64,000 nt of DNA from Acetobacter sp. 46_36. Lineage in GTDB: Bacteria; Pseudomonadota; Alphaproteobacteria; RF32; CAG-239. The stretch is from NCBI GenBank assembly GCA_001917135.1, contig MNTT01000008.1, forward strand, positions 78,564-142,563. The letters are read 5' to 3'. Shown one piece after another: positions 2,874 through 19,895 of the stretch. The notes beneath the pieces were generated by a model that searched no databases, was not told where the DNA came from, and worked only from the letters and a program-made list of their open reading frames with translations. The position numbers were made by a program, and so were the translations under genes. Numbering within the stretch: position 1 is the first letter of the stretch; each line of letters begins with the position of its first letter.

Positions 2874-4007
2874 ATGGCAATTATACTCAACCAAAATCAA
2901 GAACTAACGCTCAAAGAGCGCTTTTTTAACCTGAATTTTATTTTCATCCTCATCATTGCCCTTCTGGCTGCCATAGGCTGCATTACCCTTTATTCCGCCG
3001 CCGGAGGCAAAATGACACCGTGGGCACTCAATCAGGAAATCCGCTTCGGCATGGGATTGGGCGTTATGATTGTCGCCGCACTGATTCGTCCCGAATTCTA
3101 CTATAAAATCGCCACTCCTTTTTATCTGTTCACGCTCTTTCTGCTTCTTGTCGTTGATGTCGCCGGACATACCGGCATGGGCGCCCAGCGCTGGATAAAC
3201 CTCGGTTTCTTCAAGCTTCAGCCTTCCGAATTGATGAAACTGGCCATCGTTTTGCAGCTCGCCCGCTACTTCAGCAATACGCCGTACGAAGAAATCCGCA
3301 CCCTGCGCGGCATAGTCATTCCGGCCGTTACTGTTGCCGTCCCCGTCGCATTTATTATGATTCAACCGGATTTGGGCACATCGCTGATGGTCTTGTTCTG
3401 TGCCGCCGCCCTGTTTTATCTCGCCGGTGTCCAGTGGTGGAAATTCGCCGCCGTCATCGCCGCCGTCGCTGCAGCAGCCCCCGTGCTTTGGCATTTTCTG
3501 CACGACTACCAGAAGAATAGAATTTTGACGTTCCTGGACCCTGAACGCGACCCGCAGGGAGCCGGCTACCATATTATTCAGGCCAAAATTGCCCTCGGCT
3601 CCGGCAGCGTCTGGGGCAAAGGTTTTCTTTCCGGCACCCAGAGCCACCTGAATTTCCTCCCCGAAAAACATACCGACTTTATCTTTACCACATTCTCGGA
3701 AGAATTCGGCATGATGGGCGGCGCCTTTATTCTGTTTCTCAACCTGATTCTGATTAGCTACGGCTATTGGTTCGCTTTCCGCATCCATAACTCAAACTAC
3801 TTTGGCAAAATGGTCATTCTTGGTTTAAATACCAACTATTTCCTGTATGTTTTCATCAATGTCGCCATGGTTATCGGCCTGCTCCCGGTCGTCGGAATTC
3901 CCTTGCCGCTGATTAGCTACGGCGGCACCGTCATCATCTCGGTAATGGCAAGCTTCGGCATCATGCTGTCATTTTACGCCAACCGCGACCGCGAATTAAA
4001 AAAATAA
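2874..4007 (+). CDS. rodA: Peptidoglycan glycosyltransferase RodA (FtsW/RodA/SpoVE, SEDS family)
   Basis: 377-aa polytopic membrane protein with SEDS-family character (..QPDLGTSLMV.., ..GSGSVWGKGFL..) immediately after the PBP2 gene. Confidence 0.9.
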   Translation: MAIILNQNQELTLKERFFNLNFIFILIIALLAAIGCITLYSAAGGKMTPWALNQEIRFGMGLGVMIVAALIRPEFYYKIATPFYLFTLFLLLVVDVAGHTGMGAQRWINLGFFKLQPSELMKLAIVLQLARYFSNTPYEEIRTLRGIVIPAVTVAVPVAFIMIQPDLGTSLMVLFCAAALFYLAGVQWWKFAAVIAAVAAAAPVLWHFLHDYQKNRILTFLDPERDPQGAGYHIIQAKIALGSGSVWGKGFLSGTQSHLNFLPEKHTDFIFTTFSEEFGMMGGAFILFLNLILISYGYWFAFRIHNSNYFGKMVILGLNTNYFLYVFINVAMVIGLLPVVGIPLPLISYGGTVIISVMASFGIMLSFYANRDRELKK

Positions 4008-4097
4008 CCCTCTGCACCAGCCGCTAACCTCTTGAAACCGGACATTTTCGGCATATATGTGCTTGCATCTTAAAACTCAACAAAAGGAGAATATGCC

Positions 4098-4529
4098 ATG
4101 CAAACCATAAAAACGCCCCGGCCATGGAAAAAACTCATCAGCCTGTTTGCTGTTGCGGCAACGCTTGCAGGGTGCGCCAGTTCGCAAAAATACAACGCCC
4201 GCCTCAACGGCGAACTGGGAAAGACCTCACAACAGCTGATAAGCGCTTTCGGACAACCGTCAAAAGTACGCAAATTGGCCAACGGCGATGAAATAATCTC
4301 CTATGTCAGTATCAACTATCAGGTTATCCCCGACCCCAATTATTACTTCAATACCGGATTTATGACCGAAAACGAATTGTTTGACCCGTTTACATACGGT
4401 GATGACGAAATCCCCGTCGGAGATTTTATGGGAGAAACAATTACCGATTTTTGCAAAACCGATTTCTATCTGACAAACAACGTCGTAACGTCATGGCAAT
4501 GGCGGGGAAATGCCTGTGACGCGTTGTAA
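4098..4529 (+). CDS. Putative lipoprotein
   Basis: Signal peptide followed by a lipobox (LAGC-ASS). No recognisable domain. An RBS (AAGGAGAA) precedes the ATG. Confidence 0.55.
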   Translation: MQTIKTPRPWKKLISLFAVAATLAGCASSQKYNARLNGELGKTSQQLISAFGQPSKVRKLANGDEIISYVSINYQVIPDPNYYFNTGFMTENELFDPFTYGDDEIPVGDFMGETITDFCKTDFYLTNNVVTSWQWRGNACDAL

Positions 4530-4561
4530 CGGCGCCTTTCCCCAACTCTCCGCTGCAAATA

Positions 4562-5608
4562 TCAGGAACGCTGGCTTTCCCTTTCCGCCCGCCGCAAAGC
4601 TATAAGCCGTACTAAATCATCATCACTGTGAAATGCCGCAGTCTCTTTTGCCGATGCACGGCTAAACGTCTGATTCTGATGTTGGTATTTCTCACAAAGG
4701 ATACGCTCTGTTTTCCGGCATTGTTCAAAATGGTTCTTCAAGCTCTGCGCCAAACTGTCGCGCCCGACGTTTTCCTGCCGGATGTCTACCGTTTCAAACT
4801 TTTTCTCCTGCACGGGGGAAATGTTAATTCCCTGTTTTTTCAATAATTCCCCGAACTGTTTCATCGTTTCCGGAGACAAATGACGGAGAGCCGCCTGCTG
4901 CGGCTGTTGACGCAGATAATCCGCCATGCGCTTTTGCACATTTTTATCCGCCAGTTTTGCCGTCATCCGCCGCAATTCGTTTTCCATACCCGAAAGTTTC
5001 ATTCCCGCCGCAGCTTTTTCCGTTTCCGTACCGCTGCGCAGCATCCTGCGGCGTTCCCTGTCAATACATTTGGCCAAATGCAGAATATATTTCTCCGTCT
5101 GGCTGTTTTTCCAATCTGCCTCGATAGCTTTCCGGTCGCTTTCGCGCAGCTCGCGCCACTTCGCTGCCTGTTCGGCGTTAAGCGGCCTGCCGCCGGCTTC
5201 TTTAAGCAGGAGCATACGCTGTTCCCGGTTCGCCGCCATAATAGCCGCCGTTTCCGCCGCATATCCGAGAGCCAGCAGGGTAACTGTATAATCCATAAGT
5301 TCCCGCGTTTCCTTCTCTTCCTGATTCAGCTTCTGTTCCTCTTCTTCCACAAAGCCGCGAACGTTTTCGTTGCCGTTTAAGACTTCCGTCGGAATAATGT
5401 CGCGATACCGGCTTTTAATCCATTCCGGAATATCCCGCCATATTTTATAATGGTTCTCGTGGCGCGAAAGAATGGTGGTTACGACATCGTCAGGCGCATT
5501 TTCAGCTGTTGCCCGCCGATAATCGTCAGGATAATTCGCATATAAAAATCTTTTAAAATCATTCGAACAATCTGCCATGACACGCCTCTTTCCAGCCGGT
5601 TTGCGCAT
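4562..5608 (-). CDS. Hypothetical charged, coiled-coil-rich protein (likely starts at internal Met, MADCSNDF)
   Basis: Long ORF on the minus strand with a highly charged, helical composition. No motif recognised. Confidence 0.45.
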   Translation of the reverse strand: MRKPAGKRRVMADCSNDFKRFLYANYPDDYRRATAENAPDDVVTTILSRHENHYKIWRDIPEWIKSRYRDIIPTEVLNGNENVRGFVEEEEQKLNQEEKETRELMDYTVTLLALGYAAETAAIMAANREQRMLLLKEAGGRPLNAEQAAKWRELRESDRKAIEADWKNSQTEKYILHLAKCIDRERRRMLRSGTETEKAAAGMKLSGMENELRRMTAKLADKNVQKRMADYLRQQPQQAALRHLSPETMKQFGELLKKQGINISPVQEKKFETVDIRQENVGRDSLAQSLKNHFEQCRKTERILCEKYQHQNQTFSRASAKETAAFHSDDDLVRLIALRRAERESQRS

Positions 5609-13183: not shown

Positions 13184-15532
13184 TTATTCCGCAACATTTC
13201 CGCTTTCGGGAACTGTCGCAGCCTCCGATGCCTCATTCATTTTCTGAACATCCCCTGCACCCGGCGCAATCATATCCGCCGATACATCCCCTGCGCCCGG
13301 CACAACCGTATCTCCTGATACAACATCTGCCCCCGGCGCAACATTAACTCCTGACACATTTTCAACACCCGGAACAACCACTGCTCCGGTGGCATTCTCT
13401 GCGCCCGGAACAGCCGTATCCCCTGGCACAGCCTCGGCCTCAGATGCCGCATCTTCCTCCGGCGCGTCCGTTCCCGAAATGCCGTTGCTGCCGGGATTAA
13501 ACGAACGGATTTCCCCGTTATCGTCCATCTCCAAAATCAAATCATCAGTCGGTACAAAAATATTACTGTCATGAATTCGGCTGCCGTTTCTCCTCTGCTC
13601 GGCATTCTGTACCGGCTGTTCTCGTACGGCATTCTGCTGACTCAATCGTCGTGCCTGTTCCTGTGCCTTGCGCAGCTTTTCCTGATAAGCGCGGCTCTTT
13701 TGCTTATACTCCGCATACCAGTCCTGATAGTTGGCGGCAATGTTGGAAATCTTGCTGCCGCGAATAACCGAATTATTAATCAGGTTTTGCTTCAGGCTCA
13801 ACGCTTCGTCTGTTTTTAAATTCATATTGTCAATTGAATAACAGTAGTCCTGATACCGGATAAGCGTCTTGGTAAAATCGCTAGCCAGACAAATATTCGC
13901 ATTAATCAGAAACTTGGGGCGTTTCCCTTTGCGAATAGCCAGGTTGACCAACTGGTCTTTGACAAAGTTTCCGTATCTGCCGCCGGTCATTCCCGCCAAT
14001 TCGCGGATTGTGCTGACGCCCTGGATGATAATGTCGGTTTTGGCATTTTTATAACTTTCGGTAACAATATCCATATACTCCTGAAGTTTCCCAATAGCAC
14101 ATTTCGCCTGATCGGCATACGCCTTACGCTTTTCGTCTATTCCCCCGTTGGCAAGAGAATTGTCTTTCAAAGCGACCCATTCTTTTCTCGGCTTCAGGTT
14201 GCAGAATTCGTCATACATATAAATATCTGAGGGCAAATCCACATAAATCATATACACCTGCCCGGCTTTATCCCGGCTGAAATCCTCGCCGGCTTCGTCT
14301 ACCACCGCCGGTGCCCCTTCCAACGAGACCCTCCGGTTTTCAGCCGTTACCTTAATACCCTTCAGCGGCGACATTCCCGCCAGCATTTTGGCAACAGATT
14401 TCAAATCGCGGCTCTTCAGGCTGAGTATCCACTCCGTCAGCAGAGCATAAACGTTCTGTTCCACCGTCCGGTTTTTATCATAAACCGGCACCGTCTTATA
14501 GCTCTTAATGACGCAGCGGTCGGTATTCAGGCTCCCGCCTTTGATGCAGGTATTGAATCCCGGCATTGCATAAGTGCTGATGCCGTATCCGTTTTCCCAC
14601 AGATAATCATACAGCCGGTTCTCCTCCAGACTGAAATAATCCAATCCGCCGTGTATAAAATCCCAGCTGTTGATAAATTCCGAATAAGCGCGGTTGCCGC
14701 TGGTCGTGCTCGTATAATCGACCTGATTAAAAATATCAATCATATTGCTGACCGTTTCGTTCTTTTTGACAAACGCGTTCGGATAAATCTCAAAATTGTT
14801 CAGGGCATAAAAACCGACCATCAAATCCCGCAGTTCACGGAAATTATGGTCGCGGATGCTGTTCAAAAACTGATATGACGGGAACTTCGGCAGCATAAAA
14901 TAAACCAGATTGCCTTCCCTTTCCTCGCCGACTTTTGCCCCCAGCGCCTTAATTTCGCTGTATTCTCCTTTCGGCTGGGGTAGAAATTCGTTTTTCTTAA
15001 TCCCGATAAGGCCGGCAAACATCAGTACCATCGTAATAAAGAGCATGGCAAACGTCGACCTGAACGCAAAAAAGATAATAACGCCCAGCAGCAGCCCTAC
15101 CAGCCAAGCCGCCGGAACTATCCCGATAAACGTGAGCCAGCTGGCCTTTTTCTCCAGCCATTCCTCAATAAAAGTATCGACGTTAAACAGCGCAAACTGG
15201 TTAAAAAATACCACGACAATCAGCATTGTTACCAGCGCGCAAACGCCGTTCTGCAAATCCTTGGAAAAAGACAGCAGCAATATCAGGACAAACGAAAAGG
15301 CAAATATGCCGCCCAAAATAAATAACACAGCCTGATTAAAGGTTCCCCCCTCAATCAGCTTGCCGTTTATGGAATAGATAAACATCGCAAAATCTATTGC
15401 AAACAGCAAAAAGATATAAAACACCCGCAGCATTTTGTCATAAAAACGGTTGGCATCTCCCGACCAGCTGGCAAAACGGCTGGAACGGCTTTTTTTTCTC
15501 AAAACCAAAGGCTGGTTCACCCCTTCGCTCAT
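13184..15532 (-). CDS. Large membrane-anchored protein (782 aa) with C-terminal 12-residue tandem repeats; possible alkaline-phosphatase-superfamily exodomain
   Basis: About 5 N-terminal TM helices, then a large hydrophilic domain, then a tail of (V/A)PGxxxxxGxxV-type 12-aa repeats. It is the first gene of an apparent operon with the ABC permease and ATPase genes. Confidence 0.5.
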   Translation of the reverse strand: MSEGVNQPLVLRKKSRSSRFASWSGDANRFYDKMLRVFYIFLLFAIDFAMFIYSINGKLIEGGTFNQAVLFILGGIFAFSFVLILLLSFSKDLQNGVCALVTMLIVVVFFNQFALFNVDTFIEEWLEKKASWLTFIGIVPAAWLVGLLLGVIIFFAFRSTFAMLFITMVLMFAGLIGIKKNEFLPQPKGEYSEIKALGAKVGEEREGNLVYFMLPKFPSYQFLNSIRDHNFRELRDLMVGFYALNNFEIYPNAFVKKNETVSNMIDIFNQVDYTSTTSGNRAYSEFINSWDFIHGGLDYFSLEENRLYDYLWENGYGISTYAMPGFNTCIKGGSLNTDRCVIKSYKTVPVYDKNRTVEQNVYALLTEWILSLKSRDLKSVAKMLAGMSPLKGIKVTAENRRVSLEGAPAVVDEAGEDFSRDKAGQVYMIYVDLPSDIYMYDEFCNLKPRKEWVALKDNSLANGGIDEKRKAYADQAKCAIGKLQEYMDIVTESYKNAKTDIIIQGVSTIRELAGMTGGRYGNFVKDQLVNLAIRKGKRPKFLINANICLASDFTKTLIRYQDYCYSIDNMNLKTDEALSLKQNLINNSVIRGSKISNIAANYQDWYAEYKQKSRAYQEKLRKAQEQARRLSQQNAVREQPVQNAEQRRNGSRIHDSNIFVPTDDLILEMDDNGEIRSFNPGSNGISGTDAPEEDAASEAEAVPGDTAVPGAENATGAVVVPGVENVSGVNVAPGADVVSGDTVVPGAGDVSADMIAPGAGDVQKMNEASEAATVPESGNVAE
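13250..13429. repeat. 36-bp imperfect tandem repeat, at least 5 units, inside the 3' end of the 782-aa CDS
   Basis: Units: catcccctgcacccggcgcaatcatatccgccgata / catcccctgcgcccggcacaaccgtatctcctgata / caacatctgcccccggcgcaacattaactcctgaca / ... The unit length of 36 bp equals 12 codons, so the repeat stays in frame. Confidence 0.8.
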
Positions 15533-15599: not shown

Positions 15600-15870
15600 A
15601 GAAAAAATCGCACTTTTTTTCCAAAAACTTTCTGCTCCACCCCCTCTCCCGCATTTTCTGCCTCCTCGTCTTCCCCCTCCTGCCCTCCTCTGTTTTTACC
15701 GCTTCTCCCTTCTCCGTCTTTACCGCTTCGCCCCTCATCTATCTTCACTCCTCCCCCGCCTGTTTTCAGCTCCGGCCGCTCTGTCCCGTCTTTTTACTTC
15801 ACCCGTTCTGCTCACGTTTCCTGTTTTCCGCACCCCCAAAATCCACCCGTTCCCATTTTTTCGTCTTAAT
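15600..15870. repeat. Pyrimidine (C/T)-rich low-complexity tract on the + strand, with short internal direct repeats
   Basis: About 270 bp that is almost purine-free on the + strand (e.g. tttaccgcttctcccttctccgtctttaccgcttcgcccctcatc). It lies in the divergent promoter region between the 782-aa gene and ssrA. Confidence 0.7.
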
Positions 15871-15895
15871 CGCACCGTAAACCTGACGATAACTC

Positions 15896-15923
15896 TTGAA
15901 TTTTTGAAAACAGCTGTTATAAT
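15896..15923 (+). promoter_or_regulatory. Sigma-70-like promoter for ssrA (TTGAAT - 16 nt - TATAAT)
   Basis: The -35 element TTGAAT (15896-15901) is followed by a 16-nt spacer and the -10 element TATAAT (15918-15923). The predicted transcription start lies near 15930. Confidence 0.6.
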
Positions 15924-15929
15924 CATAGA

Positions 15930-16018
15930 CAGTTTGCGGCAATGCTGCAGGCTCTGATACGAAAAGCCGTATGAAATAGATATATTGGACCCGGGGGCGG
16001 TACCCGGCACCTCCACCA
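15930..16018 (+). ncRNA. ssrA: tmRNA (ssrA), acceptor piece of a circularly permuted two-piece tmRNA
   Basis: The segment ends ...GGAC-CCGGG-GGCGGUA-CCCGG-CACCUCC-ACCA. This matches the tRNA-Ala-like 3' architecture (GGAC, T-stem, 7-nt loop, T-stem, 3' acceptor strand, discriminator A, CCA). The 3' strand CACCUCC pairs with GGGGGUG nine nt downstream, giving a G3·U pair. The 5' boundary is approximate. Confidence 0.65.
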
Positions 16019-16027
16019 GTTTTTTAC

Positions 16028-16241
16028 GGGGGTGAAACAGGTTTGACAGTGTATAGTAAAGATATGTGGGCTGTATTCGGCAAGATACCACCGTTATCGG
16101 TTCAAATCAAATAAACGCAAATGATAATTTTGCACCTGTTGCCGTAGCTGCATAAGGCAAAGCAACAAAATCAATTCTCCAGGCTATGGTTAGCCCGGAG
16201 TGGGGAAGGAGCCGCCCAGCAACAGAACGGCTCATTTTGTT
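16028..16241 (+). ncRNA. ssrA: tmRNA (ssrA), coding piece with tag ORF ANDNFAPVAVAA
   Basis: Starts with GGGGGUGAAACAGGUUUGACAG, resembling the tmRNA 5' consensus (GGGGCUGAUUCUGGAUUCGAC in E. coli). The tag reading frame at 16119-16157 (gca aat gat aat ttt gca cct gtt gcc gta gct gca taa) gives ANDNFAPVAVAA*, close to the alphaproteobacterial tag ANDNFAEEFAVAA. A rho-independent terminator ends it at 16207-16241. Confidence 0.7.
16207..16241 (+). terminator. Rho-independent terminator after the tmRNA coding piece
   Basis: Stem GAGCCG - 13-nt loop - CGGCUC, followed by AUUUUGUUG. Confidence 0.5.
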
Positions 16242-16271
16242 GTAATTGGCATTAGCGTGGAAAAACCGGAA

Positions 16272-16736
16272 ATGACGGAATTCGTAAACGAAATAAACTA
16301 TGACAAACTGATTGAAAAAGCTCTCAAACAAGTCGTCGTGGAAGCGTTAAAAATCGCTGAAACACAAGGGCTTCCGGGCGAAAACCATTTCTATATCACT
16401 TTCAGGACCAATCACCCCGGTACCATTATTCCGCGAGACCTGCTTATTCAGTACCCTGACAGTATGACGATTGTTCTCCAGCACCAGTATTCGAATTTGG
16501 AAGTCGGAACCGATTCGTTTTCGGTAGAACTGAGCTTCGGCGGCCGTCCGCAAACTCTGGTCATTCCTTACGAAGCCATCACCTACTTCGCCGACCCTTA
16601 TGCCAAATTCGGCTTAAGCTTCTCTTTCTACGAAAATGGCGACGTCCACGCGCTTGATGACATTGAGCCGGAAAAGAAAGTATCCGGCGAAACAGCCCAG
16701 ATTATCTCCTTTGACAGTTTCCGAAAGAAACAATAA
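16272..16736 (+). CDS. sspB: ClpXP adaptor SspB (stringent starvation protein B family)
   Basis: MTEFVNEINYDKL...LPGENHFYITFRTNHPG...MTIVLQHQYSNLEVGTDSFSVELSFGGRPQTLVIPYEAITYF aligns position-by-position with the E. coli SspB core (...VDVTLPGVQVP...IVLNIAPRAVGNLELANDEVRFNARFGGIPRQVSVPLAAVLAIYA). The track ORF begins at a GTG at 16200 that overlaps the tmRNA 3' end, so the ATG at 16272 is preferred. Confidence 0.75.
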   Translation: MTEFVNEINYDKLIEKALKQVVVEALKIAETQGLPGENHFYITFRTNHPGTIIPRDLLIQYPDSMTIVLQHQYSNLEVGTDSFSVELSFGGRPQTLVIPYEAITYFADPYAKFGLSFSFYENGDVHALDDIEPEKKVSGETAQIISFDSFRKKQ

Positions 16737-16960
16737 TGCGCAAATTTTCCGTAATCATCGCCGGACGCCACGCAACAAGCATCTCGCTGGAAGATGAGTT
16801 CTATGCAGCGCTCTGCGCTCTTGCCGCCGAACGCAATATGACGCTTAACAAGCTGGTAACCGAAATTGACGGCACCCGTACGACACCAAACCTCTCATCG
16901 GCACTCCGGCTGTATGTCCTGAAAAGCCTGCTCGAAAAGCTCAAATCAGCCCAGGCCTAG
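16736..16960 (+). CDS. Ribbon-helix-helix (RHH_4-type) small protein
   Basis: 74 aa: ...GRHATSISLEDEFYAALCALAAERNMTLNKLVTEIDGTRTTPNLSSALRLYVL.., matching the conserved alphaproteobacterial RHH family (SxSLEDxFW..L..IA..R..SL..LV.EID..R...NLSSA.R..VL). Its ATG overlaps the sspB stop (TAATG). Confidence 0.6.
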   Translation: MRKFSVIIAGRHATSISLEDEFYAALCALAAERNMTLNKLVTEIDGTRTTPNLSSALRLYVLKSLLEKLKSAQA

Positions 16961-17094: not shown

Positions 17095-18168
17095 TTAAAG
17101 CTGCAATGCCTTAAAATCTTCATCCGTAAAAATATCAAAATCTCCATCTTCGGTATCGTCATTCCCCGCAATGCCATTCTCCGACGCACCATTATTCTCG
17201 GCACCATTATTCGCCGCACCATTCTCCGCTGCATCGCTCTTTTCGGTACCGTTCTTCTCCGCGCCATTACCCGTAGCATCATTCCCTGCCGCACCATTCT
17301 CCGCTGCGTCGCTCTTTTCGGTACCGTTCTTCTCCGCGCGATTACCCGCAGCATCATTCCCCGCTACACCATTATTCACCGCACTATTTTCCACAACATC
17401 ACTGCCCGAAAATAATACTTCGTCGGCCGGACCATCCGCATTATTTTCCTGCTGTTGATTTAAAAAGCTGGCCAGGCCGCCTGCTGAAGCCCCGCTTTTT
17501 TCCAGCATTTCTGTCTGATTTTGCAAAGCGGTGCCGCCGGAGCGCTGTTCAGCTTCAGAAGGCTCCTGCACTGGCACATTCTTCGCCCCGACCCGAGATT
17601 CATTCTCCGTTGCCTCAAGCGTCACCTTCCCGGGTTCAGCGGCTGTACCGACTGTTTTATCGGCAGAGGCGCCTTTCCGTTTAAACCCTTTCTTTCTTTT
17701 TTTCAAATCTTCTTTCGCCTGCTCGATTTTGACGTCCCTGTCGATTTTTTCATTATAATTTTCACTTTTCGGACGCGCAGCCTCTGCTTTTTCTTCTTCC
17801 ATCTTTTTCTTTGCCGCCGTTATTTCATCAATAACCGCCTGCGGAATATAATCCGTCTTCCCGCTCTCGACCGCTTTGGTTACAAATTCAAATTTCGCCG
17901 CCTTATACTTGGCCTCATACCAGGTCAGAATATCTTCCGGCTTAACGCCCTGGCTTATCGGGTAATACGCCGCCCCGCCCGCAACTGCACATAATAGAAA
18001 CAATACCCAAAACGGATGCCGCAAAATAAACAGCAGCATAAAAATCGGAAATGTAATAATGGTGAGGATAATATAAAAAAACTTAAATATCCCGCTTCTT
18101 TCTTTTGTTTCTGCCATAACACCCCTGCCTTTTTCCGGTCGGCATACAACCGCCGAAATGAATACCAT
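17095..18168 (-). CDS. Membrane protein with a Lys/Glu-rich linker and an acidic Asn/Gly/Ala-rich repetitive C-terminal tail (probable start at internal Met, about 18117)
   Basis: After the probable start (MAETKERSG...) come two TM helices. The C-terminus carries 25-aa tandem repeats (AENGAAGNDATGNGAEKNGTEKSDA) encoded by a 75-bp repeat. Confidence 0.5.
   Translation of the reverse strand: MVFISAVVCRPEKGRGVMAETKERSGIFKFFYIILTIITFPIFMLLFILRHPFWVLFLLCAVAGGAAYYPISQGVKPEDILTWYEAKYKAAKFEFVTKAVESGKTDYIPQAVIDEITAAKKKMEEEKAEAARPKSENYNEKIDRDVKIEQAKEDLKKRKKGFKRKGASADKTVGTAAEPGKVTLEATENESRVGAKNVPVQEPSEAEQRSGGTALQNQTEMLEKSGASAGGLASFLNQQQENNADGPADEVLFSGSDVVENSAVNNGVAGNDAAGNRAEKNGTEKSDAAENGAAGNDATGNGAEKNGTEKSDAAENGAANNGAENNGASENGIAGNDDTEDGDFDIFTDEDFKALQL
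17216..17365. repeat. 75-bp tandem direct repeat (2 units) within the 3' part of the 17095-18168 CDS
   Basis: Unit: gcaccattctccgctgc(a/g)tcgctcttttcggtaccgttcttctccgcgc(c/g)attacccg(t/c)agcatcattcc(c/c)(t/c)gc(c/t). The two copies are nearly identical. Confidence 0.8.
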
Positions 18169-18350: not shown

Positions 18351-19895
18351 TCATTCATCGGCAAAATGCCACTTGCCGTCAACACCGTCCTTAATGCATT
18401 TCCGCTTGTCAAACTCCGGTTTCAGCTGATAGACGGAACCGAAACGGGTCGCGTTATAATAGGCATTAATAATATCCCTGTCCACATAATGCACGACTTC
18501 CGGTCGGCCGCTCTCATCGGAAAATTTGTTAAAATAGCTTTTCCCGTAAACAAACTTCGGCCTGAGTTTCAATATCAGAGCGTTAATATCCGGTTTAGGC
18601 TTTATTCCCGTCGCATCGCCAACCACGTCAAGCTGGCCGATAAGCTGCCAATAATAAGCCGGATCTTTGCCAAACAGGTTATACATCATTCCGTCGCCGT
18701 TAAACACATAATCGCAAGGGCTGATATTGCGGGCAATATAGTCGGGAAGATATTTCCGTTCAGGCTGCATGGCAATAACCTCGCGCTGGAAAATAAGCGT
18801 ATTGTAGAAAACCCAATACAGCCCCGCAATCACCAGCCAGATAACCGCCCGGCATTTCCGCCGCAAAAGCCCCAAGGCCGGCACGCCGCACAGCGCCGCA
18901 AAATATACCAGCATCCAGAAATAATACGAATACGGCGAAAAATAAAACTTGCGCTGTACAAATTCCGTTACAAACAGCAACGCCAGAACTATCCAATAAC
19001 GGTTTTTGCAAACCACTGCCGCCGCCGCACCAAAAAATCCGAGCCACATCAACACTGCCATATACGGTGGAAAATCGACAATGCGGGTCATCTCAAACCC
19101 CTGCACCAAATTCAGATTAAACGTATAGTTTGAAGCATAATACAACGTCACCATATCATAGTAGCACAAATACCCCCAAAACGCCGCCGCACCGGCCAGA
19201 GGGAAAACCAGTGCCTTTGCCATATCCGCCGTTTTTATCGCCCTCTTATGCCAGAAATAAAGCCCGGTAACGCCCAAAACGGCCAGCGGGAACAACGCTT
19301 TCTGCGCAAACAAAAACGAAATGAAAAACCATGCAAACGCCGCAATCAGATGAAACGGCTTCTGCCCCTTCAGATACCTAAAGTAATAATAAATTCCCGC
19401 TGTCAGACAGAAAATCATATAATTGTCGGGGCGAAAATCAACTGCGTAAAGCTTATATCCCGGTGCGGCAATCACTGCCGCCGCTGCCAGCCCCCACAGT
19501 TTATCGCTTAAAAATTCAGCGCTGATACGATAAACATAAACCAGCGATTTCAAGAAGACCAACAGCGAAATCAGACAAACCACTTCCGTAACCGTCGCAT
19601 TATATGCAAACAGATTAACCAGCGGAGCAAACAAATACCACATCAGCGGATTATGATGCTGAAAAAAGTCGCGATACGGCACCTGCCCCTGCGCAATGAG
19701 AAAGCTTGAATGAATATGCTCGATATTATCGCCGTTCTGCGTCGGTACATGCGCCGTCATCATCGCATACAATACAGCCACGGCAATCAAGTCTGCCCAC
19801 AGTGCGGCCTCGGCTCCGTACTGCTTCCAATATGTTACGGCCTTGCCTATTCCGGCTTTGACCTTTTCCTTAAGTTCCATTCCCTGCTCCGTCAT
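18351..19895 (-). CDS. Polytopic membrane protein (about 12 TM), possible GT-C-fold glycosyltransferase
   Basis: 514-aa hydrophobic protein. An Asp/His-rich first extracytoplasmic loop (NGDNIEHIH...PYRDFFQHH) is reminiscent of ArnT/PMT-type lipid-linked-sugar transferases. The assignment is tentative. Confidence 0.3.
   Translation of the reverse strand: MTEQGMELKEKVKAGIGKAVTYWKQYGAEAALWADLIAVAVLYAMMTAHVPTQNGDNIEHIHSSFLIAQGQVPYRDFFQHHNPLMWYLFAPLVNLFAYNATVTEVVCLISLLVFLKSLVYVYRISAEFLSDKLWGLAAAAVIAAPGYKLYAVDFRPDNYMIFCLTAGIYYYFRYLKGQKPFHLIAAFAWFFISFLFAQKALFPLAVLGVTGLYFWHKRAIKTADMAKALVFPLAGAAAFWGYLCYYDMVTLYYASNYTFNLNLVQGFEMTRIVDFPPYMAVLMWLGFFGAAAAVVCKNRYWIVLALLFVTEFVQRKFYFSPYSYYFWMLVYFAALCGVPALGLLRRKCRAVIWLVIAGLYWVFYNTLIFQREVIAMQPERKYLPDYIARNISPCDYVFNGDGMMYNLFGKDPAYYWQLIGQLDVVGDATGIKPKPDINALILKLRPKFVYGKSYFNKFSDESGRPEVVHYVDRDIINAYYNATRFGSVYQLKPEFDKRKCIKDGVDGKWHFADE

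Follow-up and report, generated by a model that had tools for sequence, protein, structure and literature searches.

The window analysed here, a 64,000-nucleotide stretch of the contig MNTT01000008.1 of Acetobacter sp. 46_36, contains, consecutively and all on the plus strand, ssrA, the gene for transfer-messenger RNA (tmRNA; 15926-16246), sspB, the gene for an adaptor of the ClpXP protease (16272-16736), and a gene for a small ribbon-helix-helix (RHH)-like protein of the RHH_4 family (16736-16960). Judging from gene identities, conserved motifs and synteny statistics, it is highly probable that these genes make up the trans-translation and proteolysis locus, of the standard alpha-proteobacterial kind, of an uncultured alphaproteobacterium from the human gut. 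The adjacency of ssrA and sspB is conserved far beyond chance as a lineage-wide arrangement, and it is the majority gene order of the alpha-type SspB family, not an oddity of the window.

By its sequence, the sspB product (154 amino acids, aa) is an SspB-family adaptor of the alpha subfamily (Caulobacter type). When searched against the Pfam family SspB (PF04386), it gave E = 3.3e-37 and 128.3 bits (cutoff 27) over residues 13-130, which bears out the sequence-only reading, an earlier reading of this DNA in which the open reading frame (ORF) 3' of ssrA was assigned to the SspB family. Matches in the Protein Data Bank (PDB) were SspB-alpha of Caulobacter crescentus (2QAS, E = 6.3e-31; 2QAZ, E = 1.9e-29) and the Agrobacterium protein AGR_C_3712p (2NYS, E = 5.3e-25), with core identities of 48% and 44%, respectively, and 37 columns invariant across all three proteins. 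The substrate (tag)-binding core domain, residues 8-119 (16293-16628), aligns with residues 14-126 of the Caulobacter core in 2QAZ. The scores for the gamma/beta-type SspB equivalog models of NCBIfam, NF008762 (14.9 bits, cutoff 202) and NF008770 (13.4 bits, cutoff 198), count against an unqualified identification, and they leave only the alpha subfamily as applicable. The possibility that the protein is not really an SspB was rejected on the evidence of the profile hidden Markov model and the PDB matches.

In all, 1175 homologues were found at E <= 1e-5. The close relatives used throughout are 80 genome loci with SspB identities of 60-99% to the window, all from metagenome-assembled genomes (MAGs) and nearly all from gut, rumen or faecal samples, most of them labelled uncultured Alphaproteobacteria. 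The closest genome record by SspB (99% identity) is the uncultured human-gut alphaproteobacterium UMGS1453, deposited as 'Rickettsiales', and one human-gut metagenome contig is 100% identical.

SspB adaptors in general are built of a core domain that is joined by a flexible linker to a conserved terminal peptide, which docks on the N-domain of ClpX. The window protein follows this pattern at the level of sequence motifs, with an acidic linker, variable in length and sequence among lineages and shorter than in Caulobacter, placed between the core and a conserved C-terminal peptide, as is typical of SspB-alpha. At their very C-terminal end, the proteins of the window, Caulobacter, Agrobacterium, Sinorhizobium and the gut clade share the motif [IV][IV]S[LFI]D.FR.K; the tail of the window protein, IISFDSFRKKQ (16701-16733), aligns with IVSLDQFRKK of Caulobacter, VVSLDAFRKKQ of Agrobacterium and VVSLDSFRKKN of Rhizobiaceae, so that the window and Caulobacter proteins share the ending S[LF]D.FRKK, and residues S146, D148, F150, R151 and K153 are invariant in 9 sequences from three orders. 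By analogy with known adaptors, this tail is a putative ClpX N-domain-binding (XB-like) peptide. The SspB of E. coli (gamma/beta-type) belongs to the same Pfam family and likewise has a core from which a flexible linker leads to a short ClpX-binding peptide at the C-terminus; its tail motif, LRVVK, differs from that of the window protein. In Caulobacter, deletion of sspB slows the degradation of ssrA-tagged proteins (PMC9393093), and the window SspB would by the same token bind tagged proteins and deliver them to ClpXP.

The ATG at 16272 is the real start of sspB. Counted from this codon, the Pfam match begins at residue 13, and most of the SspB homologue clusters listed have lengths of 153-155 aa. 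Of the 80 genome relatives, 75 also have an ATG at the aligned position; in four of the rest the alignment starts only at residue 3, and in the remaining one the contig begins within the gene. The competing GTG start at 16200 was rejected on the grounds that it lies inside the tmRNA gene and finds no support in the lengths of the homologues, which sustains the preference for the ATG expressed in the earlier reading. As a separate observation, in a gut metagenome contig that is 99% identical (L093:2501-2818), the sspB match ends at residue 106 and is followed by no RHH_4 match in the approximately 800 nt of contig that are left; a deletion, a rearrangement or an error of assembly could account for this.

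The gene upstream of sspB encodes a two-piece (circularly permuted) alpha-proteobacterial tmRNA, detected both by ARAGORN and with Rfam models: alpha_tmRNA (RF01849) scored 199.1 bits, compared with a gathering score of 50, at 15892-16236, and tmRNA_permuted (RF04321) scored 145.5 bits at the same gene. The score above the gathering threshold, the permuted order called by ARAGORN and a tag reading frame that ends in xAA jointly place it in this class. The tag frame, ANDNFAPVAVAA plus TAA, was located by ARAGORN at positions 192-230 of the gene (16117-16155) and confirmed in the sequence; with the alanine carried by charged tmRNA, the full tag is AANDNFAPVAVAA. Among all tags called by ARAGORN in related and metagenomic loci, ANDN is invariant, and variation begins at the fifth residue, so that the adaptor-binding N-terminus (A)ANDN is kept, as the sequence-only reading had proposed. 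In E. coli, SspB binds the N-terminal AAND of the tag, and ClpX binds the C-terminal xAA. The Caulobacter tag, AANDNFAEEFAVAA (PMC9393093), begins with AANDNF, as does that of the window; the latter is one residue shorter and has APV in the middle, compared with AEEF in Caulobacter.

Upstream of ssrA, a sigma-70-type promoter-like site (15896-15923; TTGAAT, 16 nt, TG-TATAAT) agrees with the consensus at 10 of 12 positions, includes the TG of an extended -10, and would be the promoter of the tmRNA gene. At the equivalent position before the tmRNA, CTTGAA(T/A)...TATA(A/C)T is present in 17/17 inspected relatives, and the DNA further upstream is not conserved. The window region 15620-15860, 5' of this site, is a C/T-rich, imperfectly repetitive intergenic stretch that includes approximately 2.2-2.5 copies of a 24-nt unit, GCCCTCCTCCGTCTTTACCGCTTC; C/T-rich DNA is also found at this place in the 99%-identical relative L001, and in the other inspected relatives the DNA there is AT-rich. 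Two further peculiarities of the tmRNA genes were noted. In seven relatives (L037, L050, L057, L067, L068, L072 and L078), the permuted gene measures 470-900 nt by ARAGORN lengths and Rfam spans, compared with the usual approximately 320 nt, which implies that 150-600 nt have been inserted, presumably into the intervening segment that maturation removes. In the metagenomic locus L141 (2027-2325), the tag called by ARAGORN for the tmRNA beside sspB is unusually long, with a duplicated start motif, ANDNVAFVAANDNTVVAARVAA, which could reflect either a real duplication within the tag or an error in calling the resume codon.

The linkage between ssrA and sspB was analyzed at three levels of divergence. 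Among the gut and rumen relatives, all 79 loci that could be tested (79/79) have tmRNA directly 5' of sspB and in the same orientation: in 65 of the 80, ARAGORN found a permuted tmRNA whose end is separated from sspB by a few tens of bases, Rfam recovered it in 14 of the remaining 15 (two of these cut by the contig end), and the last locus had no upstream DNA. The more distant alpha-proteobacterial loci, collected by profile search and exact-protein look-ups, came from a Caulobacter sp., two Caulobacter-like metagenome contigs, Agrobacterium vitis, Sinorhizobium meliloti and another Rhizobiaceae genome. In all of those examined, an RF01849 match (240-312 bits) is the immediate 5' neighbour of sspB, in the same orientation, and the other neighbours have nothing in common with those in the window, namely, thyA, folA and DUF2853 in Rhizobiaceae, and an AraC-family regulator and an Atu4866-like gene in Caulobacter. 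Finally, an alignment of alpha-type SspB was used to find an unbiased, diverse set of 80 metagenomic loci. Approximately 70 of them encode proteins only 37-58% identical to the window SspB and stem from soil, peat, compost, marine and freshwater samples. Among the 63 loci with at least 450 nt of upstream sequence, 43 have an alpha-type tmRNA 5' of sspB on the same strand, at a distance of at most 220 nt in 40 of these.

The sequence-only reading had held this adjacency to be an unusual arrangement. That claim is at odds with the linkage observed in 79/79 relatives, in all distant alpha-proteobacterial loci examined and in 43/63 metagenomic loci; its underlying observation of a genuine ssrA-sspB linkage stands, the linkage being neither absent nor random across related genomes. 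The adjacency is indeed unusual by the standard of E. coli-type genomes, in which sspB belongs to an sspA-sspB operon far from ssrA, and ssrA is next to smpB. Retention of the pair across orders while all the flanking genes change argues for selection on the linkage. However, in the other 20/63 metagenomic loci, no tmRNA was detected 5' of sspB, as confirmed by an Rfam rescan; this weighs against a functional requirement, and the linkage is thus not obligatory for function.

Comparison with characterised systems places the window close to Caulobacter; in the Caulobacter-type loci examined, too, a two-piece ssrA is followed by sspB in the same orientation, albeit across a spacer of approximately 200-440 nt, compared with 26 nt between the end of ssrA and the sspB ATG in the window, and with a 4HBT thioesterase gene after sspB instead of RHH_4. 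The Agrobacterium and Sinorhizobium loci share with the window the SspB family and tail, ssrA immediately upstream and RHH_4 downstream on the same strand; they differ in having spacers of 200-300 nt, a DUF4169 gene between sspB and RHH_4, and SspB proteins that are 38-40% identical to that of the window. SspB-alpha is an already characterised adaptor family, to which the window protein adds a member in the majority gene order of that family. The Caulobacter protein was reportedly described by Lessner, Venters and Keiler in 2007 (J Bacteriol 189:272) and by Chien et al. in 2007 (Structure 15:1296), and reviews cite the former for alpha-proteobacterial SspB; both papers reportedly noted the adjacency to ssrA already, and in the former SspB-alpha is reported to have been recognised partly through this context. 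Full-text searches on the adjacency of ssrA and sspB, a search outside which the original SspB-alpha papers lay, returned nothing relevant.

The short gap between tmRNA and sspB is specific to the gut clade, and so is RHH_4 abutting sspB. The RHH_4 protein (74 aa) matches PF13467 with E = 2.5e-19 and 69.5 bits (cutoff 25) over profile positions 2-66 of 67, and the last base of the sspB TAA is the first base of its ATG (TAATG), in agreement with the prior proposal of a PF13467 protein coupled to sspB. It is located directly 3' of sspB in 80/80 genome relatives, starting 0-36 nt past the end of the SspB alignment (stop codon excluded), with the same one-base overlap in many loci. A search of the RHH_4 sequence against the PDB yielded no significant match. 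The AlphaFold2 model, built with 37 homologues (pLDDT 94.5), consists of a beta-hairpin and three helices, in contrast to the plain strand-helix-helix of RHH proteins; the best Foldseek matches were the uncharacterised Bordetella protein BP1543 (3KK4, TM 0.78) and single-chain Arc (1U9P), with probabilities of 0.99-1.0 and E values of only approximately 0.05. The invariant residues (H12, T14, S15, L18, E19, F22, I44, D45, R48 and the NLSSA.R block) would fit an Arc/NikR-like DNA-binding strand and helix, and our low-confidence guess is that RHH_4 is a small DNA-binding regulator. A literature search on RHH_4 and DUF4169 produced nothing useful.

Outside the gut clade, the position of RHH_4 varies. 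In Rhizobiaceae and some other genomes, the order is ssrA, sspB, DUF4169, RHH_4, with asmA convergent; in the metagenomic locus L101, it is ssrA, sspB, fumC, RHH_4, the third gene (3067-4458; 463 aa) having been assigned to class II fumarate hydratases by eye, not with a profile model, and RHH_4 (4473-4730) starting 15 nt after it. RHH_4 is similarly found 1.5-2.4 kb 3' of sspB in L105, L115, L119, L120 and L121. The simplest reading is that an ancestral block ssrA-sspB-(fumC)-(DUF4169)-RHH_4 lost its middle genes in the gut clade, with its compact genome. It is quite conceivable, at somewhat less than an even chance in our estimate, that ssrA-sspB-RHH_4 is simply an inherited order that lacks functional consequence, so that RHH_4 is unrelated to trans-translation, regulates a neighbour such as fumC or asmA and abuts sspB only through streamlining deletions. 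The gene orders of L101 and Rhizobiaceae speak for such a history, as do the Caulobacter-type loci, in which no RHH_4 was found within the 3 kb downstream of sspB examined, the presence of RHH_4 within 2.5 kb 3' of sspB in only 15/66 testable metagenomic loci and the 20/63 loci lacking an upstream tmRNA. Such a history does not account for the persistence of the ssrA-sspB pair amid flanks that differ between orders, nor for the one-base overlap or gap of less than 15 nt between sspB and RHH_4 in nearly all 80 relatives despite their range of SspB identities; the maintenance of this tight spacing implies co-expression of the two genes, in the gut clade at least.

The compactness of the gut-clade locus bears on how sspB is expressed. 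The tmRNA ends in a terminator-like hairpin (16209-16242) that consists of GAGCCG, a 13-nt loop, CCCAGCAACAGAA, and CGGCTC (stem-loop 16209-16233), followed by ATTTTGTTG. From the loop motif GCAACAGAA to the sspB ATG, the distance is 27-49 nt (median 35) in 71/72 relatives, that is, approximately 21-43 nt after the 3' arm of the stem, compared with corresponding ssrA-sspB gaps of 120-440 nt in the Rhizobiaceae and Caulobacter loci examined. The exception, L045, has 99 nt, with a TTGAAA-17-TATAAT of its own in the gap. A gap of approximately 21-43 nt leaves no room for a separate promoter and leader, and therefore sspB, together with RHH_4, is probably expressed either by read-through from ssrA or from a promoter inside ssrA. 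The first of these routes would entail co-transcription of ssrA with sspB. A comparable arrangement is the tRNA-tufB operon of E. coli, in which a structured RNA gene is likewise followed within a few tens of nucleotides by a protein gene that has no room for its own promoter; such an arrangement would require release of the RNA by processing. The window differs from tRNA-tufB in that co-transcription would here have to proceed through a terminator-like hairpin between the two genes.

Read-through depends on how the hairpin acts. In 76 relatives, its stem is mostly 5-6 bp and its loop 13-15 nt long, and the loop motif GCAACAGAA is part of the Rfam alpha_tmRNA consensus, which is why we read the hairpin as a weak terminator or, mainly, as a structural element of the tmRNA. 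A consensus terminator scan, limited to loops of 3-8 nt, did not call the tmRNA 3' hairpin on the plus strand, and the local RNA fold of 16170-16275 was no more stable than shuffled sequence (z = -0.5), which is uninformative on termination. Two observations weigh in the opposite direction. At least five T residues occur in the 9 nt after the hairpin in 59/76 relatives (four or fewer in 17/76), so that termination could be substantial and read-through limited. A promoter-like TTCAAA-16-GATAAT at 16101-16128, within the tag region, could give sspB an independent start. As a separate point against the preferred reading, no conserved operator-like repeat was seen 5' of ssrA in the inspected relatives, where the promoter hexamers alone are conserved, so that autoregulation by the RHH_4 protein is unsupported.

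The T-rich tract and the promoter-like site could be combined in the view that sspB and the RHH_4 gene are an independent transcription unit with a promoter in the 3' half of ssrA, that the hairpin is an efficient terminator and that adjacency does not amount to co-regulation. We regard this view as possible, though on the doubtful side. Apart from the T-rich tail in most relatives, it draws on the promoter-like site identified by the scan, on a similar element in 56/76 relatives and on the spacer of L045 with its own promoter-like sequence. However, the count of such sites in the region equals the expectation from shuffling (2 found, 1.7 expected). Moreover, in this AT-rich genome, the -10 element coincides with AAT-GAT-AAT, the codons of the N-D-N that is invariant in the tag, and the -35 element is located in GGUUCAAA, a conserved stretch of the tmRNA consensus, so that conservation of the element is explained without invoking promoter function.

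A further alternative, that RHH_4 is an antitoxin-like or partner component of a two-gene module with DUF4169, of which the gut clade would retain an orphan, appears very improbable: DUF4169 and RHH_4 are indeed small adjacent genes in Rhizobiaceae and other loci, and RHH folds are common in antitoxins, with weak Foldseek matches to AtaR and KacA, but these matches are insignificant (E > 3), neither the window nor any gut-clade locus has a homologue of DUF4169, the DUF4169 protein itself (approximately 70 aa) is highly charged with no toxin-family match seen, and, in contrast to what is typical of toxin-antitoxin modules, the locus is chromosomal, present in a single copy and vertically conserved. 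An independent observation concerns the DUF4169 proteins of three Rhizobiaceae loci (L082:3537-3749, L084:3538-3753 and L086:3527-3724), which begin with GEVVNLRQVRKAK, GDVINLRQFRKRQ or GDVVNLRQFRKQK and thus closely resemble, at their N-termini, the C-terminal tail of the SspB encoded just upstream (SVVSLDAFRKKQ, SVVSLDSFRKKN). From this resemblance, the Rhizobiaceae DUF4169 may be a competitor, a second client or a second adaptor at the ClpX N-domain.

Taken together, the reading that we prefer, a conserved trans-translation and proteolysis locus, suggests the following course of events. The sigma-70-type promoter would drive synthesis of a two-piece tmRNA precursor, and the mature tmRNA would add the tag (A)ANDNFAPVAVAA to stalled nascent chains. 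The N-terminal core of SspB is expected to bind the AANDN of the tag and its tail to dock on the N-domain of ClpX; SspB would thereby tether tagged proteins to ClpXP, which itself would recognise the C-terminal VAA, the same role that has been shown experimentally for Caulobacter SspB-alpha. The adjacency of ssrA and sspB would be an old gene order of the alpha-proteobacterial lineage that was retained by selection, with the spacer having shrunk in the gut clade. Expression of sspB and the translationally coupled RHH_4 gene would most likely proceed via read-through of the weak hairpin, in which case processing would generate the 3' end of the tmRNA, or from a promoter embedded in ssrA, and either route would tie the supply of the adaptor to that of the tag. 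RHH_4 would have travelled with the locus as a small putative DNA-binding regulator. A bolder version, which we consider rather unlikely, is that in the gut clade ssrA, sspB and the RHH_4 gene constitute one transcription unit, such that the coding piece of mature tmRNA is cut from the 5' end of the mRNA for its own adaptor, and that RHH_4 feeds back on the ssrA promoter.

The neighbouring genes in the window provide no functional context: the flanking ORFs at 13184-15532, 17095-18168 and 18351-19895, all on the minus strand, matched no Pfam family. Two of these carry in-frame tandem repeats, with 75-nt units at 17212-17373 (91% matches) in 17095-18168 and 36-nt units at 13248-13358 in 13184-15532, which encode low-complexity tails rich in Asn/Gly/Ala/Glu or Pro/Gly/Ala/Val.

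For annotation, these results imply that this gene, where it is labelled 'hypothetical protein' in MAGs of gut alphaproteobacteria, can be renamed 'SspB family ClpXP adaptor', and that the start of sspB is to be placed at the ATG rather than at the GTG within ssrA. More generally, the results document how widespread the link between ssrA and sspB is: roughly two out of three of the diverse alpha-type SspB loci sampled have it, as does practically every member of the gut clade. If the single transcription unit is real, the supplies of tag and adaptor would be coupled in amount, and a stable RNA would be co-transcribed with the mRNA of its adaptor. The modestly new elements are the extreme compactness of the locus, RHH_4 as a recurrent neighbour and the SspB-tail-like motif at the N-terminus of DUF4169, each of which is a lead into the control of adaptor levels or of access to ClpX in Alphaproteobacteria.

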